NCBI GenBank assembly: GCA_030147845.1
Contig: JASBUN010000022.1
Location: 6,152-70,151, forward strand
DNA: 64,000 bases
Reading direction: 5' to 3'
Source: Gammaproteobacteria bacterium
Lineage (GTDB): Bacteria > Pseudomonadota > Gammaproteobacteria > JASBUN01
The number at the start of each line of letters is the position of its first letter. Positions within the stretch are counted from its first letter, which is position 1. Below the pieces are notes generated by a model, which was given only the letters and a program-made list of their open reading frames with translations, was not told the origin of the DNA and made no database searches. This document shows, one piece after another, positions 5,234-55,624 of this stretch. Position numbers and translations under genes: made by a program.

Positions 5234-5426
5234 ACGCAGACCTAATACGAATTTTTCCGATGCACCGGATTGTCAGTCGCAAAGTAGGCACGCATTCGTT
5301 GTGTAGTCGATAAACGCGACGTGCGAGAAAAGCGAATCGGCACGTTAAAGGTGCGGCCAAAATTTTGGTCTCGTCCACGGTTTTGGATGAGGACGTAGTC
5401 GGCAGTCCGTCAGTTGGCCGCGGCAT

Positions 5427-6266: not shown

Positions 6267-6270
6267 CGGC

Positions 6271-7155: not shown

Positions 7156-7166
7156 GGGGAGTTGAT

Positions 7167-8012: not shown

Positions 8013-8053
8013 CAAAACCTGTGAGCGAGCGTGGCGGCCGGACGGAGAAGCAC

Positions 8054-8860: not shown

Positions 8861-8914
8861 CCCGATTTAACAGCCGGAAAAACAACTACTACAGATATAA
8901 AACGAGGAGCGGCT

Positions 8915-10006
8915 ATGAACAAAGTTTCCAAATTAGTGATCGGCGTACTCGGTGTATTTGCCGTACACGCTGCGGCTTATGCCGCTGACCCCGTCCATAT
9001 AACTTACGGTTATCATCCCTATTGGACCGGAGGTTGGAACGGTGTCATCATCAAGGCAAAAGGATTGTGGAAAAAATATCTCCCGCCTGGTAGCACCGTT
9101 AAATTTGAGCCGCATCTGACCGGTCCACCGATGGTGAATGCACTGCTCGCAAATAAGATGCAGATTGGCACCATGGGAGACATGCCGTCGCTAGTCGCGA
9201 CAACGAAAAAAAATATCGCAGATATACGTTTGGTTTCGGTTCCGATGTTTAGTGATGGGCAGAACTGCAACAAGATCGTGGTGCGGAAGGACGCACCCAA
9301 CTTCAAAGACGTAAAACAGGCCATGAAATGGCTGAATGGCAAGAATTTTGCCGTGCATCGTGGCACCTGCGCCAATCGATTTGTAAAATCGATCATCGAG
9401 AAAGGCGCTTTCACTCCCAAACGTGTGATGTATATGCCAATCGAAGTGATTGCCAGCAACTTTGAAGCGGGCAAGTTGGATGCCGCCGCAATGTGGGAGC
9501 CGCATGCTCGAAGGGTGGTCGAGAAAGGTTTTGCAAAGTACGCGGCTACTGGCGCGCCTTGGAACGAGACCGACGCCGATTTCACTCTCATGCGGGAAGA
9601 TTTTATTAAACAACATCCGGAAGCCGCAGTTGGTTGGATGAAGGCGGAAATCGAAGCGGTGCGGTTTATGGCCGAGCATCCGAAACAGACCGCCGAAATC
9701 ATGGCGAAAGAGCTTGTCAACTATACGCCGGAGATGGCGTGGACGGCCTTGTATGAGAAAAACCCGAAGAGCATAGGCGGCGCAAAAGTAAACTACATCG
9801 GTAAGATGGTGTTCGATGCGCAAGCGCTGGACTTGATGAAGAAAGGTTATGCGTTCTTATATAAGATGAAGGTGTTGAAGTCACCTGACATGCCTAAAAA
9901 CGCTTACGATCCGGGCCCGATTAATACGGCGCTGAAGGAGCTGGGCATGAAGGCGCCGGTTGGCGAGATTGTAGGCCGGCCGCGCGCGGACATGCCCAAG
10001 TTTTAA
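8915..10006 (+). CDS. ABC transporter periplasmic substrate-binding protein, NitT/TauT (NMT1/SsuA-like) family
   Basis: N-terminal signal peptide MNKVSKLVIGVLGVFAVHAAAYA; 363 aa; last gene of a permease-ATPase-permease-ATPase-SBP operon; GAGGAG RBS. Confidence 0.75.
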   Translation: MNKVSKLVIGVLGVFAVHAAAYAADPVHITYGYHPYWTGGWNGVIIKAKGLWKKYLPPGSTVKFEPHLTGPPMVNALLANKMQIGTMGDMPSLVATTKKNIADIRLVSVPMFSDGQNCNKIVVRKDAPNFKDVKQAMKWLNGKNFAVHRGTCANRFVKSIIEKGAFTPKRVMYMPIEVIASNFEAGKLDAAAMWEPHARRVVEKGFAKYAATGAPWNETDADFTLMREDFIKQHPEAAVGWMKAEIEAVRFMAEHPKQTAEIMAKELVNYTPEMAWTALYEKNPKSIGGAKVNYIGKMVFDAQALDLMKKGYAFLYKMKVLKSPDMPKNAYDPGPINTALKELGMKAPVGEIVGRPRADMPKF

Positions 10007-15522: not shown

Positions 15523-16284
15523 TCAGCCTTGCAAACTTTCCTGCATTTCAGCGCAGTATTGCTCCAAATGCTCCGGTACGTCAGGCGGACAAACACCGCA
15601 TTGACGATTACCAGGTACTGCGTAATCAATGAACTTCGGGTAGGCAAGATCCATTTCTTCCATAATCCGGACGAACTCGTCTAGCGGCTTATCGTTTCCA
15701 AGCCGCGGGTTGCGTATTTTTTCCTGGCCTATGCTGGTGACGCGTCGGCCTTCGTAGTCGTGCGCGGGAAACACCAAGCTGTCATCCGGTAACGAGAACA
15801 GTTTGTCGTGGATACTTCTGTAGAGTGTCCGCGCATCGCCGTTTTGAAAATCCGTTCGGCCGCAGGCCTCGATCAAAAGCGCATCGCCGCTGAATACGCG
15901 ATCGCTCAAACCGTCTTGAACGCGATAGGCATGATGGCCGTCAGTATGCCCTGGCGTGAATAGCGGATCGAGGCGGATGCTGCCCATTTCGAACGGTTTC
16001 CCGTCTTCGATCTCGATATCGACACACGGAAGTTTGTCGACCCCCGGATGTGCGATACGGCTGCCGGCCTCACGACGTAAAGTCAGCGCAGACGTGATGT
16101 GGTCGGCGTGGATATGGGTGTCGAGCGTGAAGGCGAGCTTCAACTTGAGCTCATTGATAATTCCGAGATCGCGTTCCCATGTCGGCAGCACCGGGTCGAT
16201 GAGTAGTGCCTGGCCCGTATCCTCGCAGGCGAGGAGATAGGTATAGGTGCTGGATATTGGTTCAAAGAGCTGACGAAAAATCAT
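15523..16284 (-). CDS. MBL-fold metallo-hydrolase, persulfide dioxygenase (ETHE1/Blh)-like
   Basis: HxHxDH motif THIHADHIT, GHTDGH, about 250 aa with a Cys-containing C-terminal extension. Start taken at the internal Met (MIFRQLF) rather than the track start at 16353. Confidence 0.7.
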   Translation of the reverse strand: MIFRQLFEPISSTYTYLLACEDTGQALLIDPVLPTWERDLGIINELKLKLAFTLDTHIHADHITSALTLRREAGSRIAHPGVDKLPCVDIEIEDGKPFEMGSIRLDPLFTPGHTDGHHAYRVQDGLSDRVFSGDALLIEACGRTDFQNGDARTLYRSIHDKLFSLPDDSLVFPAHDYEGRRVTSIGQEKIRNPRLGNDKPLDEFVRIMEEMDLAYPKFIDYAVPGNRQCGVCPPDVPEHLEQYCAEMQESLQG

Positions 16285-16704
16285 GTAAGAATTCCTTTGC
16301 AACGATCGATGTACTACACGGCAGTTTAGCAGCCATACGCGCATCGGCAGCATGTGACCATTATTTCATGCCCGCTCAGTGGCCTGACGCCGGGACCTTG
16401 CCGATATGCGTAGAGGCATTAAGGAGTATTGAAACGACGGTCCGCAGGACGGCTGCCGAGCGCGAGTGTATGTAGCCGTCAGCCGTGTTGGTCACCGCCA
16501 AAAAATACGCCAGCGAAGCACATCAGGCAAGGCGCGCAAAGGCCACGCCAACGGCTTTGCGCCGCTAGCGATGTTGCTCCAGCGTGCGCCGGCCCGCAGT
16601 CGCCACCATAGGCCGACGCGCAGCTTAGGTGCCCGATATAGTCGCTTCTGTGGTCCGTACAACGATTTATTTGTTGGTTTTATTGAACAATTAGGGTCGA
16701 GCGC

Positions 16705-16732: not shown

Positions 16733-16764
16733 GGATTCATAATGAATGCAATTGAATCCAATTT
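16717..16764 (+). promoter_or_regulatory. Nested palindromic operator-like element (AAATTGGATT...GGATTCA-N13-TGAATCC...AATCCAATTT)
   Basis: 10-bp outer and 7-bp inner inverted repeats overlapping the -10 hexamer and the 5' end of the GntR-family gene; plausible autoregulatory operator. Confidence 0.4.
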
Positions 16765-16774
16765 AGAGAGTCGA

Positions 16775-17461
16775 ATGGCGATGAATTCGCAGGAACGCGC
16801 GTACAAGTACATCAAGGATGAAATTATCGGCTATCGATTGAAGCCGAACGAGCGTCTTACTGCAGCGTCATTGGCGTCGATACTCAATATCAGCCGCACC
16901 CCAGTCCGCGAAGCGCTGAGCCGCTTGGAACAAGAACGGTTGGTGGTACGCGAATCTGGCTGGGGCTATGTCGTTCGGCCCATGACGTTTGCCGATGTGG
17001 CCAATATATTTCGCGTTCGCGAGGCTCTTGAAATTGAAGCGGCCTATGAGGCGCTGCCGAATCTCGATGACGGAGCGGCAGATTTTATGAGTGCGTTGTT
17101 GGCGCGTGCGGAGGAGTTGCTGGCCGAGAATGAAGTTTCGGAATTCCTGCGCATAAACCGGCAGTTTCACAACACCTTCGCGGAATACAGTGGCAATTGG
17201 GTGTTGCAGGACATGTTGCAGATGATCACCGATCGCATACAGATCGTCGGCGCTTTGGTTATTGATCGTTATCCGCAACGCGCGGTCGAAATATTGCAGG
17301 AAAATAAGCGCATTCTAGCTGCGGTACGCACTAAGAATGCGAATCTGGTAGACACCGAGCTGCGCGCCCATATCCGCCGAGCACGTGAGCGTGTAAGTAC
17401 ATTTTTAAAGCAGGAGTCACGGCATTTTTATCTGGGGGATGGTGCACGCTATCCCGTCTAA
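16775..17461 (+). CDS. GntR-family transcriptional regulator (FadR/FCD subfamily)
   Basis: N-terminal wHTH (LTAASLASILNISRTPVREALSRLEQERLVV) plus a C-terminal FCD-like helical domain. ATG at 16775 has an AGAGAG RBS; the track start at 16742 is in frame. Confidence 0.8.
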   Translation: MAMNSQERAYKYIKDEIIGYRLKPNERLTAASLASILNISRTPVREALSRLEQERLVVRESGWGYVVRPMTFADVANIFRVREALEIEAAYEALPNLDDGAADFMSALLARAEELLAENEVSEFLRINRQFHNTFAEYSGNWVLQDMLQMITDRIQIVGALVIDRYPQRAVEILQENKRILAAVRTKNANLVDTELRAHIRRARERVSTFLKQESRHFYLGDGARYPV

Positions 17462-17832
17462 CCAGGAAGCGATAGGCATTACGTCTCGCCCACGAGACAG
17501 CATACACGCGGTCAGTTAGCAGTCGGCCACAATAGATATAACTATAAAACAGTCCGAGTTGTTGAGAAGTTCGGCTCAACACGACAGGAGGATGGACCAT
17601 GTCCGTCACACCGCCTAGAACATGCGTATCCGCCATTCTGTATTTGGCGCGCCTTCATTGCCCGTTCTCTATGTACGTGTCCGTAGTCGGGCCTCCCGGA
17701 AAGTCATCTGAAGTTTCGTAGTTGGCAGTAATTTCTTGACGCACTAGTAGCGCGCCAATCTGTCGCCGACCGCGCGCTACCGACTTTTCTGGTTCGCCAG
17801 GGGGGTTGCTGCCGTATCCACAGGAGACTCGG

Positions 17833-18723
17833 ATGTTAACTACCTTCTTCGAATCCCGCTCAAATGGCTATTCGAAACAACGTGCACCGACCGAGAATGG
17901 TGGGTTGCATGCACTTGTTACACAAATTCGCGCCGTCGGCATCACCAAGATATTCCAAGCGGTAGATGGCAGTGAAGTGGTGGCCTTGGACGGATTGGAC
18001 CTGGACATTCGCCCCGGAGAATTTGTATGCGTCGTCGGTCCGTCTGGATGCGGAAAATCCACTTTTCTGTCGATGATGGCGGGACTGGAAACACCTACCG
18101 AGGGCACGATTGCAATCAAAGACACCGTGATCAGCTCGCCGCATCCAGACGTCGCTATGGTATTTCAGGAACATTCGTTGTTTCCCTGGAAAACGGTGCT
18201 GCATAACGTAGCGGTGGCGCAAAAGGCGCGCGGCATGCCACGCAAGCAACGCGAACAGCGCGCACGCGAAATTATTGCCATGGCAGGTCTCTCAGGTTTT
18301 GAGGACAAGCATCCATGTGAATTATCGGGCGGTATGCGCCAACGTGTCGGGATCGCGCGAGCGCTGGCGGCTGAGCCGGAGGTGCTGTTGATGGATGAAC
18401 CGTTCGGTGCACTTGACGCTCAGACGCGAAAACTGTTCCAGGAAGAACTCTTGAGGATCTACGACCAGTTTGGGAAAACCATTGTGTTTGTTACGCACAG
18501 CGTGGAAGAGGCGGTGTTTCTCGCCGACCGCGTTGTGGTCATGACTTTTCGTCCTGGACGAATAAAAAAGGTGTTCGATGTACCGATCGAACGGCCGAGA
18601 ACGCTGGATATTTTGAACGATGAAATATTTCAAGAAATACGAACAGAGGTTTGGGAGAGTTTGAAGGAGGAAGCCAGCCTGGCGTTTGAGGCCTTGGGTA
18701 ACCGAGCGGGGCGTTGCAAATGA
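17833..18723 (+). CDS. ABC transporter ATP-binding protein, NitT/TauT family (MsmG-like)
   Basis: GPSGCGKSTFLSMMAGL, LSGGMRQRVGIARAL, LLMDEPFGALD; GGAG RBS before the ATG at 17833; first gene of the transporter-msmABC block. Confidence 0.85.
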   Translation: MLTTFFESRSNGYSKQRAPTENGGLHALVTQIRAVGITKIFQAVDGSEVVALDGLDLDIRPGEFVCVVGPSGCGKSTFLSMMAGLETPTEGTIAIKDTVISSPHPDVAMVFQEHSLFPWKTVLHNVAVAQKARGMPRKQREQRAREIIAMAGLSGFEDKHPCELSGGMRQRVGIARALAAEPEVLLMDEPFGALDAQTRKLFQEELLRIYDQFGKTIVFVTHSVEEAVFLADRVVVMTFRPGRIKKVFDVPIERPRTLDILNDEIFQEIRTEVWESLKEEASLAFEALGNRAGRCK

Positions 18724-19568
18724 ACCTTACCACACTTGCCGGGTCGCGAAGGACCGTTAGCGGAAACTCCGGCGCGTCGCACAGACGCATAATTGGCTAC
18801 AGGACACGGGAATTTTTTCTGTTTCTACTCCCGATTGCCGCCTTTGTCTTGATTTGGGAAATTGCCACGTTGGTGGCGAAATGGCCGCCATACTTACTTC
18901 CCGGTCCTGCCAAAGTTGCCGAAACATTTTGGGCGCTGTTGATCAATGGCGATCTTTTGCGCTATCTGCGCGACAGCGTTGGGCGTCTGATGTTAGGCAG
19001 TGTCACGGCATTTTTTGTCGCGGTGCCGATGGGCTACCTGATTGCCACCTCCAGGTTTGCCGATCGGGCGTTTTCACCGCTGATTGCCATGACGCAACCG
19101 ATTCCCGGCATCGCCTGGATTCCACTGGCAATTCTTTGGTTTGGTCTAGGGCCCGCGGCAGTCGGTTTTATTATTTTTCTATCGGCGTTTTTCCCCATTC
19201 TGATTAATACCGTAGCCGGTGTACGTGCTGTCGGAAAGGATTTACGCCGGGTGGCGCAGGTGTTCCATTTTCCGCGCCGTATGTTGCTATTCGACGTGAT
19301 GTTGCCGGGCGCCCTCCCGTACATCGTTACCGGAACGCGGCTCGGATTCGGGTACGGATGGCGCGCGCTGGTGGCGGGCGAAATGATCGCGGCCAGTAGC
19401 GGGCTGGGTTACATGATATTTGATGCGAGGAACTATTTGAAAACCGACGAAGTCATCGTCGGCATGCTTACAATTGGCCTGTTTTGGGCATTCGTGGAAC
19501 GTGTCGCCCTGCGCCCAATTGAGCGCTGCACTGTCGAACGCTGGGGAATGGTGACGAGTGCAAATTGA
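18720..19568 (+). CDS. ABC transporter permease, NitT/TauT family (MsmF-like)
   Basis: ATG overlaps the ATPase stop (ATGA coupling; the track uses TTG at 18714); conserved AQVFHFPRRMLLFDVMLPGALPYIVTG and AGEMIAASSGLGY motifs. Confidence 0.8.
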   Translation: MNLTTLAGSRRTVSGNSGASHRRIIGYRTREFFLFLLPIAAFVLIWEIATLVAKWPPYLLPGPAKVAETFWALLINGDLLRYLRDSVGRLMLGSVTAFFVAVPMGYLIATSRFADRAFSPLIAMTQPIPGIAWIPLAILWFGLGPAAVGFIIFLSAFFPILINTVAGVRAVGKDLRRVAQVFHFPRRMLLFDVMLPGALPYIVTGTRLGFGYGWRALVAGEMIAASSGLGYMIFDARNYLKTDEVIVGMLTIGLFWAFVERVALRPIERCTVERWGMVTSAN

Positions 19569-19614
19569 ATTATAACGATAGCAAAATTCCGGTCCCACCG
19601 GGGAGGGCGATATT

Positions 19615-20640
19615 ATGATCAAGCTATTTACGGTTGCAGTGCTGGCACTGCTAACGAGTCAAGCGATGTATCTGCCGAGCGCAAATGCGTCGGATGTTGA
19701 GTTGCGGTTTGCGACATTGACGTCGATTAGTAAGGCACCACCGGGTGTGGTCGCCGAGACACACAATCTATTCGAAAAAGAGGGTGTGCACGTCAAAATG
19801 AAGCTGTTCACCTCGGGTAAGGCAGCCGTCGAATCATTGGCCTCGGGGCAATTCGACATCGCCATGATCGGTGATATTCCGGCGCTGGCTCTTTTAGGTC
19901 AGGGCTATCCAGGTAAGATCATCGCCGCCGGTCTCGGCGGACCGAAGCGCCAGTCCGTTTTGGTAAAACGGGATTCCCCGTACAAAACGGTCGAAGATCT
20001 TAAGGGCAAGCGGATTGGGCTGACGAAAGGGTCGACCGACGATATCGCCTTGGGGGCGACGTTCAAGAAACATAATATCAAGTGGTCGGATGTTACGGTC
20101 GTCAATCTGCGCCCACCGGCGAAGGCGGCGGCGTTGGAGACCGGCGCGGTGGACGCTGTCGAAGGCTGGGAGCCGGTGCCGGCGATTATCGTTACCAAGG
20201 GTATAGGGCGCCGGCTATTTAGTGCGGACGGCGACATTCCCGACATCGTTGGTGTAATTGTCGCCAGCGACAAAATTCTCCGTGAGCATCCTGATGCGGT
20301 CGTGCGTTTTCTACGTGCAATCCATGGCGGCGCAAGTTATGCGCGCGCCCATCCTGATGAAATGGTTGACCTATTGTCGAAGCGCCTTGGCTTGGATAGG
20401 AAAATATTAATCGATGCGATTCCGACACAGTGGTGGTATGTCGAGGTGTTCAGCGACACGATCTCCGATTGGCAGCGATCCGCCGACTTGTTGTTCGGCC
20501 TGAAGCGCTTGGCTTCGCGCCCCGATGTCGCCGGATTGGTGGACTTATCGTATCTGTCCAAGGCGTTGGGTAAAAAATATCCACGCGGCGAAAGTGCAGC
20601 CGATGTAATGAAATATCCGACCGTGTCCATCACACAATAG
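19615..20640 (+). CDS. ABC transporter periplasmic substrate-binding protein, NitT/TauT (NMT1-like) family (MsmE-like)
   Basis: Signal peptide MIKLFTVAVLALLTSQAMYLPSANA; 341 aa; immediately upstream of the Rieske oxygenase genes. Confidence 0.75.
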   Translation: MIKLFTVAVLALLTSQAMYLPSANASDVELRFATLTSISKAPPGVVAETHNLFEKEGVHVKMKLFTSGKAAVESLASGQFDIAMIGDIPALALLGQGYPGKIIAAGLGGPKRQSVLVKRDSPYKTVEDLKGKRIGLTKGSTDDIALGATFKKHNIKWSDVTVVNLRPPAKAAALETGAVDAVEGWEPVPAIIVTKGIGRRLFSADGDIPDIVGVIVASDKILREHPDAVVRFLRAIHGGASYARAHPDEMVDLLSKRLGLDRKILIDAIPTQWWYVEVFSDTISDWQRSADLLFGLKRLASRPDVAGLVDLSYLSKALGKKYPRGESAADVMKYPTVSITQ

Positions 20641-20728
20641 ATGCGTAGGCGCGGGCCGGTTTTGTTACGTGCGGTCTGTATTGTTAATACGCCGAATATT
20701 TTTTTATCGATTTGGAGGTGAAGCAAAC

Positions 20729-22009
20729 ATGTCTACCGTGGCTGGAGAAAGTCCACAGGCAAAGCAATCCGCCGACAATGAAGTTACCGGGCGTTTGTCC
20801 AAACAATGGTCGGCGCGTCTGCCGCTACCCGACAGTCATCTTGTTGACACCCGCATTTACACGGATCCAGCGATATTCGAGCAAGAGATTGAACGCATCT
20901 GGCATAAGACCTGGCTGCCGGTTTGCCACGAAAGTGAGCTCGCCAATCCGCTGGACTTTCGTTCTTCCGGCATTGCCGGTGATGTGCCTATTGTGATAGT
21001 GCGAGGCACGGACGGTAAGGTAAGGACATTCCTGAACGTATGCCCGCATCGCGGGAACCTGATTGTACGTAAGGCGCGCGGAAATTTATCCGTGGCCGAA
21101 CCATCCGGAAATTCCAATCATATGACCTGCATGTTTCACGGTTGGCAATTTAATGCCGAAGGTCGCTGTGTGGAGATACCCCGAGAACGCGCCGGATATC
21201 AAGACCGGGTGTGTAAGGCAGGCATGGGTTTGCGTCAAATCAGAACCGAGGTCGCTTATGGCGGCTTTGTCTGGGTCAATCTCGACGATGACGGAGAATC
21301 TCTGGACGACTATATGGGCGGTATTTTCGACTACATGAAAGTTGAACTGGAAAGCGAGCCTTTGGAGGTATTTCACTACCAAAAGGTCGTTATCAACACC
21401 AACTACAAATATTTTCACGAGACCGGGCGAGAGTTTTATCACGACTTTTTGCATTATCACAACCGACAAACAGGGATGATGCAGAAAGGCTATTTCGATC
21501 GAAAATATGTCCCGTATAAGAATGGACATTGTTTGATCGGACTGACTATTTCTCAATATAAGGCGTATCAGGGCTACGAGGATCGCGGCTTGACGTTTCC
21601 CGGCATGCCAAAGAATGGCTGGAAGGGTATCGGTCTGTTTCCGGGAATTACGTTCAATTTACGCTCGTCCTGTCTGCGGGTTAATTTCATGACGCCGATC
21701 AGCGAGAATCGCGTTCTCATTGAGGTGCGTGGCCTGGGTTTGAAGCGGGATGATGACGAGACCCGGGCGTCGAGAATCCGTGATTTCAACACCATATGGG
21801 GGCCGTTTGGCCGCAACGCACACGAGGACTTCTTGGCCATACAGACTCAGGCGGTGGCGGTGCGACCGGGTTCCGGCGCGAAATACTGTGTCATGGCGCG
21901 TGAGGAAGACGACACCACTCACGACGAGATCGGCCTGCGTTGCTACTACAGTGAGTGGAGTCGGCGTATGGGCCGGTTGGCTAGCGATCCGACTCGCACT
22001 CACCCATAG
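20729..22009 (+). CDS. msmA: Rieske non-heme iron oxygenase alpha (hydroxylase large) subunit, MsmA-like (methanesulfonate monooxygenase-type) with CXH-X26-CXXH Rieske motif
   Basis: CPHRG...(26 residues)...CMFHGW: the two ligand pairs are separated by 26 residues instead of the usual 15-17, the hallmark reported for MsmA. 426 aa; GGAGG RBS before the ATG at 20729. Confidence 0.65.
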   Translation: MSTVAGESPQAKQSADNEVTGRLSKQWSARLPLPDSHLVDTRIYTDPAIFEQEIERIWHKTWLPVCHESELANPLDFRSSGIAGDVPIVIVRGTDGKVRTFLNVCPHRGNLIVRKARGNLSVAEPSGNSNHMTCMFHGWQFNAEGRCVEIPRERAGYQDRVCKAGMGLRQIRTEVAYGGFVWVNLDDDGESLDDYMGGIFDYMKVELESEPLEVFHYQKVVINTNYKYFHETGREFYHDFLHYHNRQTGMMQKGYFDRKYVPYKNGHCLIGLTISQYKAYQGYEDRGLTFPGMPKNGWKGIGLFPGITFNLRSSCLRVNFMTPISENRVLIEVRGLGLKRDDDETRASRIRDFNTIWGPFGRNAHEDFLAIQTQAVAVRPGSGAKYCVMAREEDDTTHDEIGLRCYYSEWSRRMGRLASDPTRTHP

Positions 22010-22184
22010 TCGGCAGGTATGGCAGTGAGTGGGCGGGTCGCCGCGCAACCTCCTGCCTAGCCCGATAGCCAGTCCGAGGTTTGTTGACAGGAGACTATGT
22101 CGGACTCAATGCGATCGCGTCCAACTGATTTGTCGAATGTGCTAGTTGAAATTGATGACCAATAGAACCAGTGAGGAGTCGAGC

Positions 22185-22694
22185 ATGTCCGCAGTATTGG
22201 CAGTGCCGCAAGATATACGAAATCGGGTCCATGACCTGATTTATGAGAGCTGTCTGCTCTTGAATGAAGAGCGCTGGGACGATTTTTTGGATTTATGCGA
22301 TTCGGAAACGTTTCGATATGTAATAGGAAACTACAGCCCGGAGATTGGGAAAGAACAATTTTGGCTGGATATCGACTTTGCCGGGATGAAGCATATGTTT
22401 GAGATGCTGCCAAAACACAATACCGACCATGCGCAGCTCACACGTCAATCGACGGTCTATCGCCTTGAGTATGCGCCGGAAAATGAGGTAATAACCGCGA
22501 CCACCGGTTTTACTATTTATCGCACCCACGAAGATGGTGGTTATGCACATCTCGATGGTGGCAGCACGTGTTTGTATGTCGTTGGACAATATATTGATCG
22601 CGTGGCGTTGCGCCCGGACGGTGACAAATTAACGCAACGTACGGTGTGGACCAATACACGGCAACTGGACATCGGATCACACTATCCATTTTAA
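22185..22694 (+). CDS. msmB: Ring-hydroxylating oxygenase beta (small) subunit, NTF2/SnoaL-like (MsmB-like)
   Basis: About 170 aa, typical beta-subunit size and position immediately downstream of the alpha subunit; GAGGAG RBS. Confidence 0.6.
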   Translation: MSAVLAVPQDIRNRVHDLIYESCLLLNEERWDDFLDLCDSETFRYVIGNYSPEIGKEQFWLDIDFAGMKHMFEMLPKHNTDHAQLTRQSTVYRLEYAPENEVITATTGFTIYRTHEDGGYAHLDGGSTCLYVVGQYIDRVALRPDGDKLTQRTVWTNTRQLDIGSHYPF

Positions 22695-22746
22695 ATTTGT
22701 TTTCGTAGTCAAAGAGCTGGGCCGTAACCTTTATTTGGAGCCGATC

Positions 22747-23079
22747 ATGTCGTGGAAAAGTGTATGCAAATTGGATGATTTACCGCTCGGTGGCCTTACC
22801 GTGGTGACTATCGACGGCGTGGAAGTGCTGTTGGCGCGGTCTGATAAATGCGTGACGGCAATGCCGCCGCTTTGTCCACATATGAAAGAGCCATTGGTCA
22901 ACGGCGTATTTGATGGTGAAAATTTAACTTGCCTGAAACACCTGTGGCAGTGGGATGTTAAGACCGGCGAAAGTCTAGGCGAGGCGGAAAAGCCGTTATG
23001 CCAATATCAATTACGTGTGACTGATGGTCACGTTGATATCAATATGGCGGAAGAATTGAAATATGAATACGAAGCCTAA
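22747..23079 (+). CDS. msmC: Rieske-type [2Fe-2S] ferredoxin (MsmC-like electron-transfer component)
   Basis: CPH (LCPHMKEP) and CxxH (CLKHLWQW) with 17-residue spacing; about 110 aa; GGAG RBS. Confidence 0.7.
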   Translation: MSWKSVCKLDDLPLGGLTVVTIDGVEVLLARSDKCVTAMPPLCPHMKEPLVNGVFDGENLTCLKHLWQWDVKTGESLGEAEKPLCQYQLRVTDGHVDINMAEELKYEYEA

Positions 23080-23100
23080 CGCGTCAGGAGTATTGCGGTA

Positions 23101-24585
23101 ATGACTACTATTGTTGCGAGTGAGAACAAGCCTGTAAGGACTGTGTTCGAAGCACACGATTACGGTCGCGCTCTGTATATTAGTGGCGAATTCGTGAGCG
23201 CCGCGAGCGGCAAGCGAATCGATGTGCTTAATCCTGCTAAGGGAGAAGTATTTCAGTCGGTAAGCTATGGCGATATCGATGACGTTGATCGTGCGCTATC
23301 GTCGGCCGAAGCCGCGTTTCCGAGTTGGTCGCGGTCATCGATACGCATGCGCGCGGATCTTCTCAATGAGGTTGCCCGTTTGCTCCGCAATCGCAAAGAA
23401 GTTATTGGTGCGATACTGTGCCAAGAGTCTGGAAAGCGCCGTGTCGAAGCTATTGCCGAAGTGAACTTCGCTGCGGAATACTTTCAATGGTTTGCCGAGG
23501 AGATCCGCAGACCATGTGGGTCAATCATCTCCGGCGACTCTGCCAGCCGGCGGCAATGGGAGATACATGAACCGTGCGGCGTTGTGGGGTTGTTGACGCC
23601 TTGGAATTTTCCGATATCTATACAAGCGCGTAAGCTTGCGCCGGCCCTTGCCGCCGGCTGCACCGTCGTCTCGCGCCCGAGTGAAAAGGCGCCATGCTCG
23701 GTGGTAGAGCTGTTCCGCTGTTTACACGATGCTGGGATTCCTGCGGGTGTTGCGCAGCTTGTTTTGGGTCCACCGGCCGAGGTCACACAACGAATTTTTT
23801 CCCATTCTGCGGTGCGCTTGGTCAGCTTCACGGGTTCTACCGGCGTGGGCAAACAGTTGATGCGCTTGGCCGCCGACCGCGTCGTTAGATTGTCGCTTGA
23901 ATTGGGAGGAAATGCCGCGTTCATCGTTCATAGTGACGCCGATATCGATGCGGCGGTAGACGGAGCGGTGATGGCGAAGTTTCGCAATAATGGCCAATCG
24001 TGTATAGCGGCCAACCGGTTACTGATCCATGAAAATTGTTACCGAGAGTTCGTGAATAAATTTGTGAGTAGGGTAGAGCGCTTGAGGGTTGGTAACCCCA
24101 TGGACGATGATGTCGATATTGGTCCGCTGATCGACGCATCGAGTCAGGATAAATTGGAACGTGCAGTGCGCGCAGCTATCGCCGAAGGCGCGGAAGTTCT
24201 CAATACGGAAATGAGAGCGCCGGAGGAGGGATCGTACGTGGTGCCACGTGTTTTGGCGCACACCCCGATAAACACATTTTTGGGTTGTGAGGAGATCTTT
24301 GGCCCGATTGCAGTCGTTTCATCTTATACCGATATCGACGAAGTGATCGAGATGGCCAACCGGCCCAACGTTGGATTGGCGAGTTACGCTTATACCCGCG
24401 ATTTACGCCTCGCCACTCGACTAACCGAGGCGCTTCGGGTGGGGATAGTAGGTCTCAACAACGCCTTGCCCGCGGCTGTGTTCGCACCTATGGGCGGTAT
24501 GAAAGAAAGCGGCTTCGGGAGAGAGGGGGCACAGCACGGCTTGCGAGAATTTCAGGAAATAAAATACGTATCGATGGAATTGTGA
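23101..24585 (+). CDS. NAD(P)-dependent aldehyde dehydrogenase (ALDH superfamily, GabD/succinate-semialdehyde-DH-like)
   Basis: Catalytic Cys motif FRNNGQSCIAANR, LELGGNAAFIV, EEIFGPIAVV; 494 aa; 21-bp gap after msmC. Confidence 0.8.
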   Translation: MTTIVASENKPVRTVFEAHDYGRALYISGEFVSAASGKRIDVLNPAKGEVFQSVSYGDIDDVDRALSSAEAAFPSWSRSSIRMRADLLNEVARLLRNRKEVIGAILCQESGKRRVEAIAEVNFAAEYFQWFAEEIRRPCGSIISGDSASRRQWEIHEPCGVVGLLTPWNFPISIQARKLAPALAAGCTVVSRPSEKAPCSVVELFRCLHDAGIPAGVAQLVLGPPAEVTQRIFSHSAVRLVSFTGSTGVGKQLMRLAADRVVRLSLELGGNAAFIVHSDADIDAAVDGAVMAKFRNNGQSCIAANRLLIHENCYREFVNKFVSRVERLRVGNPMDDDVDIGPLIDASSQDKLERAVRAAIAEGAEVLNTEMRAPEEGSYVVPRVLAHTPINTFLGCEEIFGPIAVVSSYTDIDEVIEMANRPNVGLASYAYTRDLRLATRLTEALRVGIVGLNNALPAAVFAPMGGMKESGFGREGAQHGLREFQEIKYVSMEL

Positions 24586-24658
24586 GTGCGCCGATGATCG
24601 ACGCCGCGCGAGCGCAGATATCGGCTTAGCCGTTTACTGTGGAGTCTTTTGGCTTGAT

Positions 24659-25588
24659 ATGAGCATGCGCATCTTGATTATCGGTGGTACCGGGCAAATC
24701 GGCGCAAGGATTTCACGCCATCTATGTCAGCGCGGCGACGACGTTTACGTTTTCGGTAGAAGGCCACCGGGCGATGCCGCGGTTCACCACGCGCGTACTA
24801 ATTTCCACTGGGTGCAAGGCGATGTGCGTGATGCAATCAAGGTTCGCGAAGCGGTCAAGGCGATTCGGCCGATTAAAATAATACATCTTGCGGCGCTGCT
24901 GCAGTTTGCCTGCGATGTTGATCCGGCGCAGGCGATTGAAGTCAACGTTGTAGGCACGTTGAACGTGCTAGAGGCGGCGCGCGAATTTGGCGTGGCGCGT
25001 GTATTATTCGGCAGCAGCGTTGCGGTCTACGGCCAGCAGCGCGCCTTACTTCGAGAGGACGGCGCGGTCGGCGCCGACGTCTCGTTGTATGGCGAGACTA
25101 AGCTCATGGGAGAAAAGCTCGGAGCGCAGTATGCAAAAAATTACGGCTTTGAGTTCATCGCGCTGCGCTTTTGCGGCATATTTGGCAGCGGAGCGCCACA
25201 GAGCCGGGGTATGGCCTGGGTGAGGCGCCAAATTGAAAGCTCGGTAAATGGCGAGCGAGTCCTGATAGAGGACGCGTCAGGCGACGAGCGTGTGCAACTA
25301 ACGTATGTTGCCGATGCGGCGGACGCATCGGTGGCATTGCTCGATCACGCGCAGCCGACGTTCGGCGTTTACAATATCGCGGCAGGGCACGAGAACTACA
25401 TTAGCTTGCGTCAATTTCATGCATTGATCAAGAGTGTGGCGCCAGGCGCGGGTGACGTGGAGTTCGTCGGCTGCGGTCGCGATATGGCGCTGGTCAGCAT
25501 CGATCGATTGCATGCGCTTGGCTTCCAACCAAGATATTCGGTTGTCGACGGCATCCGTGCCTCGCTGGAGGCGCTTCAGGGGCAGTAG
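24659..25588 (+). CDS. NAD-dependent epimerase/dehydratase family protein (extended SDR)
   Basis: N-terminal Rossmann ILIIGGTGQIGARI, catalytic YGETK; 309 aa. Confidence 0.7.
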   Translation: MSMRILIIGGTGQIGARISRHLCQRGDDVYVFGRRPPGDAAVHHARTNFHWVQGDVRDAIKVREAVKAIRPIKIIHLAALLQFACDVDPAQAIEVNVVGTLNVLEAAREFGVARVLFGSSVAVYGQQRALLREDGAVGADVSLYGETKLMGEKLGAQYAKNYGFEFIALRFCGIFGSGAPQSRGMAWVRRQIESSVNGERVLIEDASGDERVQLTYVADAADASVALLDHAQPTFGVYNIAAGHENYISLRQFHALIKSVAPGAGDVEFVGCGRDMALVSIDRLHALGFQPRYSVVDGIRASLEALQGQ

Positions 25589-25853: not shown

Positions 25854-27899
25854 TTGGGAGCTTTGCGCAGAGCGATGCAAGTAGACGTAATTCGTATCCT
25901 CCTGGTTGAAGACAACCCTGCTGACGCGCGGCTGGTCGAGTGGGCGTTGTCCGAGGTCGTCGGTTGCCGCTTCGACGTGATTCGAGCCGAGCGTCTTTCC
26001 GAGGCGTTGCAATGCCTCGATGGCCCGCGCTTCGACGCCATTCTGCTTGATCTATCACTGCCCGATTCTTTCGGCCTGGATACCATTTCGCAAATTGGGA
26101 TTGTTGCGCCAACCGTTCCGATCGTGGTGCTAAGCGGTCTACTGGACGACGAGCTTGCTTTTGAGGCCGTCAAGGGCGGTGCGCAGGACTATCTCGTCAA
26201 AGGTCAGGGCGACGGCTATTTGATCGCGCGTTCGGTTCGCTACGCGATGGAACGTAAGCGTGCCGAAGAGGCGTTGCGAGAGAGCGAGCGTATGCTCGAG
26301 CAGGCGCAACGCATCGCACACGTTGGACACTGGGTGTGGGATATCGCCTCGGGACATTTGTGCTGGTCCGACGAGGTATATCGGATCTATGGATATCAAC
26401 CGCAGGCTTTTACGCCGACGTACGAGCTGTTCCTTGCCGCTGTCGCGGTGGAAGACCGACAACGTATGGTGGACTCAATCGACGCTAGCTTGCGCGGTCG
26501 TGGACCGCTTGCGTTCGAGCACGGTATCGTGCGCACCGACGGTACACTTCGTACCGTCGAGGAGCGTGGCGAGATGGACTTTAATGCCGCCGGCAACCCG
26601 GTTCGCATGCGGGGCACGGTGCAGGATGTTACTACCTTTAAAGAAGTAGAGACTGAATTACGTCGCGCGCGCGATGATCTGGAACTCCGCGTCGAGGTTC
26701 GCACTGCGCATCTAGCCGAAGCCAACCGGCGCCTTGAGCATGAGGTTGTGCAGCGTACACGCACCGAGGAAATATTGCGTGGCGAACGCGACTTTATCGC
26801 CGCCGTTTTGGATACGGTCGGCGCACTAGTCGTTGTATTGGACGGCAAGGGGCGCATTATTCGATCCAATCGCGCCTGCGAGCAAACGACCGGTTACTCA
26901 TTCGAAGAAGTGCGCGGAAAGCCCGTCTGGGAGATATTTGTAGCGCCAGACGAGCGCCGCGGTGTGAAGCAGATATTCAATCAATTGTTGAACGTACGGT
27001 CGCCCAGCGAGTATCAAAATTACTGGGTTACCCGCAGTGGCGAAAGGCGCATGATCGCCTGGTCGAATACGGTATTACCGGCGCGCAATGGGGCCGCCGC
27101 GCATGTGATTGCAACCGGTATCGATATAACCGATCAGCGTAAGGCCGAGGAGCACGAGCGGCAGCGCATGCTGGAGTTGGCCCACGTCGGCCGCCTGAGC
27201 ACGATGGGCGAGATGGCTACGGAGATCGCCCACGAACTCAATCAGCCGTTGACCGCCATCGCGAGCTATAGCGATACGTGCAACCGTATTATGAAACTGC
27301 CGACCTGGAATGTGGATGAGGTACATGAAATTCTCGGAGAAATTTCCGGGCAAGCACATCGTGCCGGCGAAATCATTCGGCGCTTGCGAAGTTTTGCGCG
27401 TAAAGAAGACTCGCAACGTGCGTCAGTCGATGTCAACGAATTGGTCAAGGATATGGTCTACTTGACCGAGGCGGAGGCGCGCTGGCATGACGTGACCGTG
27501 TTACTCGAGCTGGCTGATCGCTTACCGTCGGTGGTAGCGGACCGAATATTGATCGAACAAGTAATGATCAACCTAGTGCGTAATGCTATTGATGTTTTAG
27601 GTAGCGATCAGTCCGTACAAAAGCGCGTGCTGGTGCAGACCTGGGTCAATGATCGAAATATGGTTGAGGTTGCGGTGAGTGACACTGGGCCTGGTTTGTC
27701 GGCCGACGCGGTGAAGCGAGTTTTCGAGCCATTTTACACAACCAAGTCCAGCGGTATGGGCATGGGTTTGTCCATCAGTCAATCCATTATTGAATCTCAC
27801 GATGGTGAACTATGGGTAACATCGCAGCCGGGACAGGGGGCGACCTTTGGTTTCGTGCTGCCTTTAGAGACGGAGGTGGAGGTCAGTAATGCGGTCTGA
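25854..27899 (+). CDS. Response-regulator-receiver / PAS / histidine kinase hybrid sensor (REC-PAS-PAS-HisKA-HATPase_c), FixL-like
   Basis: N-terminal REC (ILLVEDNPADARLV...ILLDLSLPD), PAS repeats, H-box EIAHELNQPLTAI, HATPase TGPGLSADAVKRVFEPFYTTK...GMGLSISQSII. Alternative ATG at 25875. Confidence 0.8.
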   Translation: MGALRRAMQVDVIRILLVEDNPADARLVEWALSEVVGCRFDVIRAERLSEALQCLDGPRFDAILLDLSLPDSFGLDTISQIGIVAPTVPIVVLSGLLDDELAFEAVKGGAQDYLVKGQGDGYLIARSVRYAMERKRAEEALRESERMLEQAQRIAHVGHWVWDIASGHLCWSDEVYRIYGYQPQAFTPTYELFLAAVAVEDRQRMVDSIDASLRGRGPLAFEHGIVRTDGTLRTVEERGEMDFNAAGNPVRMRGTVQDVTTFKEVETELRRARDDLELRVEVRTAHLAEANRRLEHEVVQRTRTEEILRGERDFIAAVLDTVGALVVVLDGKGRIIRSNRACEQTTGYSFEEVRGKPVWEIFVAPDERRGVKQIFNQLLNVRSPSEYQNYWVTRSGERRMIAWSNTVLPARNGAAAHVIATGIDITDQRKAEEHERQRMLELAHVGRLSTMGEMATEIAHELNQPLTAIASYSDTCNRIMKLPTWNVDEVHEILGEISGQAHRAGEIIRRLRSFARKEDSQRASVDVNELVKDMVYLTEAEARWHDVTVLLELADRLPSVVADRILIEQVMINLVRNAIDVLGSDQSVQKRVLVQTWVNDRNMVEVAVSDTGPGLSADAVKRVFEPFYTTKSSGMGMGLSISQSIIESHDGELWVTSQPGQGATFGFVLPLETEVEVSNAV

Positions 27900-28494
27900 A
27901 GCAACTATCTACATAGTCGACGACGATGAGGCAATAAGAAAGTCGTTGGCGTTGCTAATGAGGTCGGAAGGCTATCTGGCTAAGACTTGTTCATCGGCGC
28001 AGCAATTTCTAAAATCGTATGTCCCTGCTGTGCCGGCGTGCGTGGTGTTGGATGTGCGCATGCCGGGAATGAGTGGCATGGAACTACAGGACCTACTGAT
28101 AAAACGTGAAATTCATGTTCCAGTTATTATTATGACGGGACATGGTGATATTTCCATGGCTGTTAGAGCAATGAAAGCCGGCGCCTGCGATTTCATCGAG
28201 AAGCCGTTCGAGAACCAGCTATTGCTAGGACGTATCGAGGAGGCTCTCCATGACGCCATGGATGAATTGCGGCGCGACGGTGAGGCAGCTCATGCCCGTG
28301 AGCGTCTTGAGCTACTGACACCTCGAGAACGCGAGACGCTGGAACTGCTCGTTGTTGGTAAGCTCAACAAACAAGTCGCCTCTGATCTCAATATCAGCGT
28401 CCGTACGGTAGAGGCGCACCGAGCCAAAATCATGGAGAAGCTCGAGGTTCGCTCATTGTCCGAACTGGTTAGGCTTGCCTTGCTGGCGAACTGA
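27889..28494 (+). CDS. Two-component response regulator, FixJ/NarL (LuxR-type HTH) family
   Basis: REC domain IYIVDDDEAIRKSL...MPGMSG, C-terminal LuxR HTH LTPRERETLELLVVGKLNKQVASDLNISVRTVEAHR; overlaps the upstream kinase by 11 nt. Confidence 0.85.
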   Translation: MRSEATIYIVDDDEAIRKSLALLMRSEGYLAKTCSSAQQFLKSYVPAVPACVVLDVRMPGMSGMELQDLLIKREIHVPVIIMTGHGDISMAVRAMKAGACDFIEKPFENQLLLGRIEEALHDAMDELRRDGEAAHARERLELLTPRERETLELLVVGKLNKQVASDLNISVRTVEAHRAKIMEKLEVRSLSELVRLALLAN

Positions 28495-44148: not shown

Positions 44149-44239
<91 letters not shown>

Positions 44240-44443: not shown

Positions 44444-44564
<121 letters not shown>

Positions 44565-54464: not shown

Positions 54465-54492
54465 GTCGGTGGCTGCCGCTTACATAGAACGA

Positions 54493-55563: not shown

Positions 55564-55624
55564 AGGATCGCGCGCATAGTGCAGTCGAATGAATTCGATG
55601 ATCGGAATATCATGGATACGTGTT

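Follow-up and report, generated by a model that had tools for sequence, protein, structure and literature searches.

The methanesulfonate monooxygenase system MsmABCD and its importer MsmEFGH, known from Methylosulfonomonas methylovora M2 and Filomicrobium Y, combine a two-subunit Rieske/mononuclear-iron hydroxylase bearing a CXH-X26-CXXH motif with a Rieske-type ferredoxin and a NitT/TauT-family importer encoded alongside the oxygenase genes, features which recur in the locus described here. The MsmA protein of Marinosulfonomonas methylotropha TR3 is reportedly 82% identical to that of M2, a value attributed to Baxter et al. 2002. In TR3, msmABC and msmABD form separate operons, and the reductase for a hydroxylase-ferredoxin operon without a reductase gene of its own is supplied from another locus (PMC4433239), an arrangement like that of the present locus. 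TR3 differs in being a methylotroph with a canonical MsmA and no known short-chain dehydrogenase/reductase (SDR) or dehydrogenase partners. Both msmA and the X26 Rieske spacer serve as functional markers for counting methanesulfonate degraders in environmental data.

An SsuA/TauA-type ABC importer is coupled to oxygenolytic desulfonation in SsuEADCB and TauABCD, as it is here; these systems, which are controlled by sulfur starvation (CysB/Cbl), differ in employing flavin- or alpha-ketoglutarate-dependent enzymes and in lacking enzymes that process the carbon skeleton. In the literature consulted, the oxygenolytic routes for larger organosulfonates employ flavin-dependent or alpha-ketoglutarate-dependent enzymes. 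Sulfo-ASMO (SquD/SmoC) and sulfo-ASDO (SqoD) share the aldo-keto reductase SquF/SmoB; C-S cleavage yields sulfite and an aldehyde, whose carbon skeleton is then salvaged by the NADPH-dependent reductase, a logic that is also proposed below for the present locus. These sulfoquinovose pathways are under the control of GntR-type regulators and couple oxygenases that are not homologous to one and the same downstream enzyme (PMC10507154). The present locus departs from them in that its putative reductase is an extended SDR, a family other than that of SquF/SmoB, its oxygenase is of the Rieske type, and a sulfoquinovosidase and sugar transporter are absent.

Extent and conservation of the locus

The window, i.e., the whole 64-kb stretch of DNA that was analysed, harbors on its + strand, between positions 17833 and 23079, the six genes for an importer ATPase, permease and binding protein and for a Rieske alpha subunit, beta subunit and Rieske ferredoxin (Table 1), each of which lies where the preliminary description had placed it. 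The interval given there for the locus was, however, too narrow, as the conserved unit runs from the GntR/FCD gene at 16742 to 25588, past the aldehyde dehydrogenase and SDR genes; the gene list was thus correct for its six members but overlooked these three genes, which hold most of the functional information. The resulting nine-gene unit comprises a GntR/FCD regulator, a three-gene SsuA-type importer, the oxygenase genes A-B-C, an SSADH-like aldehyde dehydrogenase and an extended SDR of predicted NADP type.

Table 1. Features of the nine-gene unit and its leader
Feature	Coordinates	Strand	Basis
GntR/FCD-family transcriptional regulator, first gene of the module	16742..17461	+	Pfam GntR and FCD domains
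Conserved leader element GAGTTGTTGAGAAGTTCGGCTCAAC, inverted repeat GTTGAG/CTCAAC	17556..17580	+	Match in L085
ABC transporter ATP-binding subunit, NitT/TauT family	17833..18723	+	Pfam ABC_tran
Single ABC permease, TauC/SsuC-like	18720..19568	+	Pfam BPD_transp_1
Periplasmic binding protein, SsuA (aliphatic sulfonate) family	19615..20640	+	TIGR01728 SsuA_fam
Rieske non-heme-iron oxygenase alpha subunit, MsmA family, clade G1	20729..22009	+	Pfam Rieske and Ring_hydroxyl_A
Oxygenase beta (small) subunit, MsmB homologue	22185..22694	+	Methylocella match
Rieske-type [2Fe-2S] ferredoxin, MsmC homologue	22747..23079	+	Pfam Rieske and Rieske_2
Aldehyde dehydrogenase, SSADH/SLADH type, both anion-binding Arg	23101..24585	+	Pfam Aldedh 3.9e-150
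Extended SDR, epimerase/dehydratase fold	24659..25588	+	Pfam Epimerase 1.5e-43

All nine genes recur in the same order amid unrelated flanking genes in L085/L086/L088 (alpha subunit 83% identical), so that a second genome has the complete unit in another setting. The more distant L084 (alpha subunit 79% identical) retains the GntR gene, the importer, A-B-C and the SDR gene together with an FNR-type reductase gene, directly after which the contig ends. The regulator gene keeps its position in L001, in L085/L086/L088 (64% identity) and in L084 (59%). Downstream of it, the leader element matches that of L085 at 23 of 25 bases despite divergence of the surrounding intergenic DNA, and is a candidate operator or hairpin; it is followed on its 3′ side by AGGAGG and a 40-codon open reading frame (17599-17721), and is absent in L084.

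The oxygenase alpha subunit

The Rieske motif of the alpha subunit, CPH-RGNLIVRKARGNLSVAEPSGNSNHMT-CMFH, has exactly 26 residues between its ligand pairs, a spacer found in 231 of the 252 aligned sequences (X17 in the other 21, outgroup L139 among them). With BphA (2xsh) and terephthalate dioxygenase (7q04) as alignment references, rather than from coordinates, the Rieske ligands were assigned to C105, H107, C134 and H137 (P0001 numbering) and the iron ligands to H238, H242 and D367, with E235 as the bridging residue; the 2-His-1-carboxylate motif that the preliminary description had marked for inspection is, therefore, present, and none of the Rieske ligands, iron ligands or E235 varies across 251 sequences. 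The subunit shares 49 to 68% identity, over at least 90% of its length, with family members named by JGI as methanesulfonate monooxygenase large subunits, and 51 to 52% with the alpha subunits of the Methylobacterium and Methylocella msmABCD loci, which, together with a Hyphomicrobium locus, were used as proxies for M2 msmABCD (51 to 52% identity). Its earlier placement in the MsmA family on the basis of the X26 hallmark is thereby borne out. Comparison with GbcA/CntA/Stc2-type oxygenases placed it outside these types: its score with the GbcA model was 86 bits, where 670 is required, and the match to CntA (6y8j) was confined to the Rieske domain (E = 2e-21).

Within the family, the subunit belongs to a distinct and rare clade, G1 (neighbor-joining bootstrap, 96/100), whose relationships to clades G2 and G3 receive a support of 58 or less in the tree. 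The clade is marked by YFFAFVT in place of the canonical LWHLLMI at positions 228, 229, 353, 364, 368, 378 and 397, a near-invariant pattern present in 184 of 212 sequences outside G1 and G2 but lacking in the window alpha subunit. A364 and F368 flank the ligand D367, and Y228 and F229 come just before the His ligands; a location of the seven residues in the active-site pocket is suggested by this closeness in sequence rather than by coordinates.

Beta subunit, ferredoxin and reductase

The beta subunit, for which a Pfam scan gave no match, is 38% identical (E = 1e-38) to the protein that the Methylocella msmABCD cluster encodes at the place of msmB, and a profile built from nine homologues identified ring-hydroxylating dioxygenase beta subunits as the top matches among solved structures (3eby at 5e-4, 2b1x_B and 8k0a_B). 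The ferredoxin shares 42% identity with Methylocella MsmC (E = 1.5e-24), and the proposed identity of the two proteins as MsmB and MsmC homologues is upheld by these matches.

As had been stated previously, msmD is absent from the whole window: tblastn searches of the 64 kb with the reductases of Methylocella L056 and of L084 gave a best E value of 0.3, and Pfam scans of the other large open reading frames in the window revealed neither an FNR-type nor a glutathione-reductase-type reductase. An FNR-type reductase was likewise not found within 10 kb in L085, while the relative L084 has one. The significance formerly attached to this absence could not be sustained, since 15 of 53 well-flanked family loci have no reductase nearby and the TR3 operons are split; the lack of an adjacent reductase is common in the MsmA family and not special. 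SquF, the reductase common to SquD and SqoD, represents a published parallel to such shared-reductase logic (PMC10507154).

The importer

The highest-scoring NCBIfam models for the ATPase, whose start codon is preceded by an AGGAG ribosome-binding site, were nitrate, SaoA and taurine ATPases, none of which reached its cut-off, and those for the permease (282 amino acids in the L001 gene call) were SaoP, TauC and SsuC, also with scores under their cut-offs. The binding protein passes the SsuA_fam model (210.8 bits against a cut-off of 163.5). It was rejected as an MsmE orthologue at 24 to 26% identity to MsmE-like proteins, compared with 59 to 66% within its own clade and 46 to 71% within the MsmE-like group. 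The view that the importer mirrors msmEFGH is, therefore, not retained: MsmEFGH includes two permeases and is encoded divergently from msmA, whereas the window importer consists of three co-directional genes with one permease.

The aldehyde dehydrogenase and SDR

The aldehyde dehydrogenase has E. coli GabD (3jz4; E = 4.7e-114) as its top solved relative and RlGabD (8c54) among its best. The context of the catalytic Cys and Glu is the same in all three, as are the two Arg positions that bind anions. The window enzyme differs from the other two in reaching no curated equivalog cut-off (SSADH models TIGR01780 and GabD, 459 bits against 646 and 424 against 828; SafD, 287 against 700). Its motifs WNFPISIQAR and FRNNGQSC place Arg residues at Asn+8 and Cys-6. 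In human SSADH the carboxylate is bound at these positions, for which a role in sulfonate binding has been proposed in RlGabD (PMC10599462). The enzyme is 67% conserved in L085, and the Arg pair, kept in all module dehydrogenases, implies that the molecule bears a further anionic group; the substrate sulfonate possibly carries a carboxylate.

The SDR, which displays the motifs GGTGQIG and YGETK and a basic G/S-R-R after beta-2, is probably NADP(H)-dependent. Its family is sharply bounded (40 to 60% identity inside, the next matches falling to 33%) and is the most constant partner of the G1 oxygenases, occurring in all three G1 lineages.

Is methanesulfonate the substrate?

The homologies above would be accommodated by a genuine methanesulfonate monooxygenase. 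On that reading, imported methanesulfonate would yield formaldehyde and sulfite; the dehydrogenase would protect a non-methylotroph from the formaldehyde by converting it to formate, and the SDR would play an accessory part. Methanesulfonate could still be a substrate because identity to the canonical clades is high (up to 68%); the MsmB and MsmC homologues and the TR3 precedent for a split or absent reductase agree with this, as does the X26 spacer, so far present in every proven methanesulfonate degrader (PMC4433239). Its retention in the window alpha subunit was counted against a non-methanesulfonate reading. The spacer also occurs in the G2 clade, however, and is thus a lineage marker rather than a substrate marker. 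The locus departs further from MsmABCD/MsmEFGH in its separate alpha clade, with seven near-invariant positions altered, two of them beside the iron-binding Asp, in a binding protein with only some 25% identity to the MsmE-like group, in the lack of msmD and in the additional conserved GntR/FCD, dehydrogenase and SDR genes; neither this SDR nor such a dehydrogenase was present in any of the canonical msmABCD loci examined (0 of approximately 130 further loci of the family that have msmD and a transporter of the MsmE type). The Arg pair suits aldehydes with an anionic group, not formaldehyde, and the related G2 clusters have TctC-type transporters. We consequently regard methanesulfonate as an unlikely, if credible, substrate. 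The partner genes, the importer and the residues beside the iron ligands point instead to another sulfonate, and the variant substrate entertained in the preliminary description is rated as likely.

A different order of events, with the oxygenase acting last, would have the SDR oxidise a hydroxyalkanesulfonate (isethionate, 3-hydroxypropanesulfonate or DHPS) to a sulfo-aldehyde and the dehydrogenase convert this to a sulfo-carboxylate (sulfoacetate, 3-sulfopropanoate or sulfolactate), which the Rieske enzyme desulfonates. An Arg pair corresponding to that proposed to bind sulfonate in the sulfolactaldehyde dehydrogenase RlGabD, the position of RlGabD among the best solved relatives, the SafD score of 287 bits and a binding protein suited to a simple sulfonate are all in keeping with such a route. 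However, several related clusters (L145/L146 and L149/L150) keep the SDR without the dehydrogenase, which would break a linear chain, and the G2 TctC transporters suggest that the imported compound already has a carboxylate. The S/G-R-R motif, moreover, suggests NADPH, which among SDRs is more typical of reductases. This order is considered improbable.

Association of the SDR family with other oxygenase classes

Clade G2, a second MsmA-like clade, shares W229F, H353Y, M378I and I397V. Its loci always include a member of the SDR family together with GntR/FCD and TctC(BA), and in many cases the dehydrogenase as well. The SDR family also adjoins oxygenases of other classes: in L152, an SsuD/MsuD-like monooxygenase with flavin reductase, dehydrogenase, TctCBA and GntR/FCD, and in L147 and L151, TauD-family hydroxylases. 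Across these oxygenase types, TctC is 50 to 75% identical and GntR up to 73%. The SsuD-like enzyme is nearer to MsuD/SsuD than to SmoC. The window regulator shares 37 to 44% identity with the GntR/FCD proteins encoded in G2 Rieske clusters and in the SsuD-type one; as G1 module components in general are just 37 to 47% identical to their counterparts there, the substrate may differ from that of these clusters.

The TauD-family partners look like FrbJ-type hydroxylases rather than TauD or SqoD and, with the function of clade G1 predicted from sequence, they lend some credence to hydroxylation or demethylation of another small polar compound, not a sulfonate, by the MsmA-like enzyme. Such a substrate nevertheless appears highly improbable, given a binding protein that passes the SsuA-family cut-off, C-S cleavage as the sole characterised activity of the MsmA family and a sister module whose SsuD/MsuD-like enzyme lies beside a sulfite-oxidase-like gene pair.

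Proposed pathway

On balance, we lean towards reading the locus as a catabolic operon under GntR/FCD control whose substrate is an aliphatic sulfonate, probably not methanesulfonate. From family assignments and characterized relatives, we infer the reaction chemistry, step order, cofactor preference and nature of the substrate as follows. The sulfonate would be imported by the SsuA-type ABC system and acted upon by a three-component MsmA-family Rieske monooxygenase (alpha-beta hydroxylase plus Rieske ferredoxin), to which an NAD(P)H reductase from another genomic locus is presumed to supply electrons. If the established MSAMO reaction applies, the sulfonate-bearing carbon would be hydroxylated and the resulting alpha-hydroxysulfonate would collapse to sulfite and an aldehyde. 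The NADP-type extended SDR may then reduce this aldehyde, the SSADH-like dehydrogenase may oxidise it, or both may act on it.

The sister clusters suggest that one conserved pathway, serving a sulfonate distinct from methanesulfonate, can exchange one oxygenase for another. We give an even chance to the broader proposal that the window encodes one version of a new oxygenolytic route dedicated to a particular sulfonate, perhaps a sulfo-carboxylate or hydroxy-sulfonate, in which a conserved core of GntR/FCD, NADP-type extended SDR, often the SSADH-like dehydrogenase, and a dedicated transporter is joined, depending on the bacterium, to one of three unrelated enzymes that cleave C-S bonds or hydroxylate (a Rieske enzyme of the MsmA type, a flavin-dependent one of the SsuD type or a TauD-family member).

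Should this proposal be correct, the substrate range of MsmA-type enzymes would exceed methanesulfonate, and X26 would be an unreliable marker of its degradation in metagenomes. If G1 and G2 act on other sulfonates, counts of methanesulfonate degraders based on msmA or X26 would be inflated, and Rieske oxygenases would join the turnover of larger organosulfonates. The conserved core of SDR, regulator and transporter provides a handle for identifying the substrate, and the pairing of the SDR core with differing oxygenases would be a naturally occurring example of a pathway whose key enzyme has undergone non-orthologous replacement.

Family membership of the oxygenase

All six oxygenase and importer genes claimed in the preliminary description were found on the forward strand, their coordinates agreeing with those proposed (see the table), and the assignment of the oxygenase to the MsmA type proved right at the family level, being supported by homology, ligand residues, the homologues of MsmB and MsmC, and the spacing of the Rieske ligand pairs. 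The alpha subunit shares 49 to 68% identity, along almost the entire chain, with hundreds of proteins; JGI names many of them methanesulfonate monooxygenase large subunit. Its motif CPH-RGNLIVRKARGNLSVAEPSGNSNHMT-CMFH bears out the reported CXH-X26-CXXH spacing, with 26 residues between ligand pairs, a spacing that characterizes the MsmA of all proven methanesulfonate degraders (Henriques and De Marco, PMC4433239). Comparison with the GbcA- and CntA-type oxygenases returned weak matches to the glycine-betaine/carnitine-type models (86 bits against a cut-off of 670 for GbcA), the CntA match being confined to the Rieske domain.

Alignment to biphenyl dioxygenase (2xsh) and terephthalate dioxygenase (TPDO; 7q04) located the Rieske ligands C105, H107, C134, and H137, the bridging acid E235, and the 2-His-1-carboxylate iron ligands H238, H242, and D367 (numbered on the window protein, P0001), all of which are invariant across 251 family sequences. 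D400 was considered as the iron-binding Asp and ruled out, as the TPDO alignment puts the ligand at D367. No solved MsmA structure was found, the best solved relatives being aromatic dioxygenases, whose similarity falls mostly in the Rieske domain, while the profile of the small subunit led to dioxygenase beta subunits among solved structures. Because a homologue search from Methylobacterium MsmA gave no entry named M2 or TR3, the MsmA proteins of M2 and TR3 were represented by msmABCD loci of methylotroph genera.

The absence of a reductase from the whole window was likewise confirmed: tblastn searches with two queries, the protein at the MsmD position in Methylocella (L056) and the reductase of the related locus L084, gave a best E value of 0.3, and Pfam scans of all other sizeable window open reading frames (ORFs) detected no FNR-type or glutathione-reductase-type protein. 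The lack of a neighboring reductase is not unusual in the family, since 15 of 53 long-flanked loci have none within 9 kb and since msmABC and msmABD form separate operons in strain TR3 (PMC4433239).

Features of the window
Feature	Position	Strand	Remarks
Second NitT/TauT system	5400-10006	+	Permease, ATPase, permease, ATPase, binding protein (8915-10006)
MBL-fold protein	15523-16353	-	Resembles glyoxalase II/sulfur dioxygenase; divergent from GntR gene
Leader	17556-17721	+	Between GntR and ATPase genes
ABC ATPase	17833-18723	+	ATG preceded by AGGAG ribosome-binding site
Permease	18720-19568	+	
Substrate-binding protein	19615-20640	+	SsuA family
Rieske alpha subunit	20729-22009	+	Rieske and Ring_hydroxyl_A domains (Pfam)
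Small (beta) subunit	22185-22694	+	Without Pfam match; 38% identity to Methylocella msmB-position gene
Rieske ferredoxin	22747-23079	+	42% identity to Methylocella MsmC
Histidine kinase/response regulator pair	25854-28494		
Hybrid histidine kinase	33402-38966	-	1854 aa; nine HAMP repeats, GAF, kinase core, three receiver-domain matches
tRNA-Ser(GGA)	44149-44239		Ahead of dnaX-ybaB-recR
SRP RNA	44456-44552		Ahead of dnaX-ybaB-recR
Two-domain rhodanese	52279-53097	-	
GlcDEF-like glycolate oxidase genes	53250-57118	-	FAD_binding_4/FAD-oxidase_C, FAD_binding_4, CCG/Fer4
DsrE-like ORF	60820-61320	+	Weak match
Iron-containing alcohol dehydrogenase	61347-62621	-	

A nine-gene unit

The real unit comprises nine genes, which in the window and in L001, from the same organism, follow the order GntR/FCD regulator, ATPase, permease, binding protein, alpha subunit (A), beta subunit (B), ferredoxin (C), aldehyde dehydrogenase, and extended short-chain dehydrogenase/reductase (SDR). 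The related loci L085, L086, and L088 (alpha subunit 83% identical) carry the nine genes in identical order between entirely different flanking genes, and this difference in genomic context suggests that the module moves as a unit. In L084 (alpha subunit 79% identical), GntR, importer, and A-B-C genes are followed by the SDR gene and then an FNR-type reductase gene; as this contig stops 150 bases past the reductase, a dehydrogenase gene may follow. When 5.8 billion protein clusters were searched, no relatives other than these lineages and that of the window exceeded 70% identity. The species is not represented in the set of genomes searched, the top match there being 66% identical.

The MBL-fold gene and the histidine kinase/response regulator pair were rejected as module members, being missing from the L085 version. 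The leader contains a 25-nucleotide block with the inverted repeat GTTGAG/CTCAAC, 23 of whose 25 bases are kept in L085, while the element is absent from L084. The block is followed by AGGAGG, an ATG, and a 40-codon ORF holding a second conserved block, GTCCGTAGYCGGGCCTCC, whose nucleotide conservation exceeds that of the flanking codons. A FadR-type pattern (T.GT..AC.A) yielded no consistent GntR operator, scan counts for promoters and terminators were not above those of shuffled sequence, and Rfam identified no RNA family in the locus.

As regards the surroundings, G+C content is 0.51-0.57 over window positions 1-36000, which include the sulfonate module, and 0.55-0.61 over 36000-64000. Of the other sulfur-related genes dispersed over the window (MBL-fold, rhodanese, and DsrE-like), none is conserved beside the module in L085. 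The GlcDEF-like and alcohol dehydrogenase genes encode possible users of a C2 product but are some 30 kb distant from the operon.

Comparison of the importer with that of msm loci

Among about 150 loci of family members collected and annotated by tblastn, the usual layout is A-B-C-D or A-B-D-C (D being the reductase gene), often accompanied by a NitT/TauT system of five genes (binding protein, permease, ATPase, permease, ATPase), whose binding proteins are 46 to 71% identical to one another across clades. The window binding protein is only 24 to 26% identical to this MsmE-like group, passes the curated cut-off of the SsuA-family model (210.8 against 163.5 bits), and is encoded with a single permease, co-directionally with the oxygenase genes. 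On these grounds the transporter is predicted to be of the sulfonate type and not an msmEFGH equivalent, and the earlier view that it mirrors msmEFGH does not hold. That the operon serves a non-sulfonate substrate is a reading to which we assign very little probability.

The binding protein of the second NitT/TauT system of the window shares 35 to 39% identity with the MsmE-like proteins encoded in canonical msm loci and thus resembles MsmE more than does the binding protein of the operon; it scores 129.6 bits on the SsuA_fam model, under the cut-off of 163.5.

Clades and signature residues of the alpha subunit

A neighbor-joining tree (52 representatives, 398 columns, 100 bootstraps) recovered the window clade, G1 (bootstrap 96), a second clade, G2 (100), and G3, a betaproteobacterial A-B-C-D clade (99). 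Their branching order is not settled by this tree, as the joint supports reach only 58 (G1+G2+G3) and 53 (G2+G3). Placement of G1 as sister to all others, upon rooting on a 26%-identical outgroup, was not robust (bootstrap 20/100).

Seven positions (228, 229, 353, 364, 368, 378, and 397), each at least 90% conserved in the 212 sequences that belong to neither G1 nor G2, distinguish the clades: the full pattern LWHLLMI occurs in 184 of these 212, YFFAFVT in all 10 G1 sequences, and LFYLLIV in most G2 sequences. Residues 364 and 368 lie on either side of the iron ligand D367, while 228 and 229 fall within NYK-x-x-HET-x-x-E-x-x-H, the segment leading to the His ligands; from this nearness to the ligands, the signature residues may be expected to line the substrate pocket. 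The X26 spacer is present in G2 too and would, therefore, mark lineage rather than substrate.

Other layouts were also encountered. Twenty family members have a Rieske spacer of 17 residues (L039, L049-L051, L055, L057, L062, L064, L067, L069, L072-L074, L080, L082, and L129-L132), and those with enough flank mostly show the order A-B-D-C, followed downstream by a five-gene transporter of the MsmE-like type; such sequences have been noted as annotated MsmA of unproven function (Henriques and De Marco, PMC4433239). Polyangia metagenome-assembled genomes (L033, L034, L047, L063, L070, and L083) show another non-canonical layout, namely, binding protein, permease, ATPase, A, and B, neither a ferredoxin nor a reductase being encoded within 10 kb. 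L014 (1455-12666) bears two tandem A-B-C-D copies on a single contig, separated by 6 kb; the contig was binned as Gaiellales, although the genes look betaproteobacterial.

The SDR family and its oxygenase partners

The SDR family is sharply bounded, with about 90 clusters at 40 to 60% identity followed by a drop to 33%. The contexts sampled, only a dozen, fell into three settings. In G2 Rieske clusters, GntR/FCD and A-B-C genes, sometimes a reductase gene, the SDR gene, and sometimes a dehydrogenase gene occur with TctC or TctCBA. In L152, GntR/FCD, SDR, and TctCBA genes accompany those for a dehydrogenase, a flavin reductase, and a luciferase-like monooxygenase, which among solved structures is most closely related to MsuD (E = 3e-75) and SsuD (E = 5e-69). 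Sulfite-oxidase-like molybdoenzyme and cytochrome c genes lie about 6 kb upstream of this SsuD-like module (L152 1-1134 and 12185-15326), which fits sulfite release by the module. In L147/L148 and L151, a ROK regulator, TctC, and the SDR occur with a TauD-family protein whose only solved relatives are FrbJ-type hydroxylases.

Across these settings, TctC identity is 50 to 75% (30 to 37% against an unrelated TctC of L147), that of GntR/FCD is up to 73%, and that of the SDR is 42 to 59%, a likeness suggesting that the TctC/SDR modules share a single ligand or a small set of ligands. The G1 components are more distant (GntR, 37 to 44%; SDR, 41 to 47%; dehydrogenase, 38 to 43%), and an ABC system replaces TctC as importer; the G1 substrate may thus be the same as that of the other modules or only related to it. 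A parallel is provided by the sulfoquinovose pathways, where one reductase, SquF, works with either a flavin enzyme (SquD) or a dioxygenase (SqoD) (PMC10507154), much as the SDR family here is combined with different oxygenase classes. Sulfoquinovose itself, considered as a substrate because of the extended SDR, ROK regulators, and SsuD/TauD parallels, gained no support, since the SsuD-like enzyme is nearer to MsuD and SsuD (E = 1e-69 to 1e-75) than to SmoC (1e-42 to 1e-44) and the TauD-family enzyme matches only FrbJ-type hydroxylases.

Proposed pathway and substrate

The aldehyde dehydrogenase is closest to Escherichia coli GabD (E = 4.7e-114) and falls under every curated equivalog cut-off. 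Like GabD, it has arginines at Asn+8 (WNFPISIQAR) and Cys-6 (FRNNGQSC). In human SSADH the carboxylate of succinate semialdehyde is bound at these positions, and a role for them in binding the sulfonate has been proposed for sulfolactaldehyde dehydrogenase (PMC10599462). Both arginines are kept in all module dehydrogenases, which implies that the pathway aldehyde would bear a second anionic group, either carboxylate or sulfonate. SDR and aldehyde dehydrogenase genes were absent, by tblastn annotation, from all canonical loci among the approximately 150 collected. A true methanesulfonate enzyme, accompanied by a dehydrogenase that removes formaldehyde, is an alternative that we regard as unlikely.

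All SDRs contain GxxGxxG, YxxxK, and a basic S/G-R-R motif past the second strand; the last presumably denotes NADP(H), and hence a reductive role. Oxygenase plus SDR is the smallest set conserved in related clusters (L145 and L149), which fits action of the SDR after the oxygenase. A linear route in which SDR, dehydrogenase, and oxygenase act in that order on a hydroxyalkanesulfonate is, in our estimation, quite improbable.

The open literature yielded no account of MsmA-type enzymes with SDR, dehydrogenase, and GntR partners, nor any Rieske or MsmA-type enzyme acting on C2-C4 sulfonates. With moderate confidence, we favor a pathway of sulfonate import, MsmA-type desulfonation, and handling of the aldehyde by the SDR and dehydrogenase. 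Following import, the MsmA-type enzyme, served by a reductase encoded elsewhere, would hydroxylate the sulfonate-bearing carbon, thus releasing sulfite and an aldehyde, which would be reduced by the SDR or, where the dehydrogenase is present, could be oxidized instead. The operon would then serve a sulfonate other than methanesulfonate, for which sulfoacetate, 3-sulfopropanoate, sulfolactate, cysteate, and sulfonated sugar acids are candidates that fit parts of the evidence.
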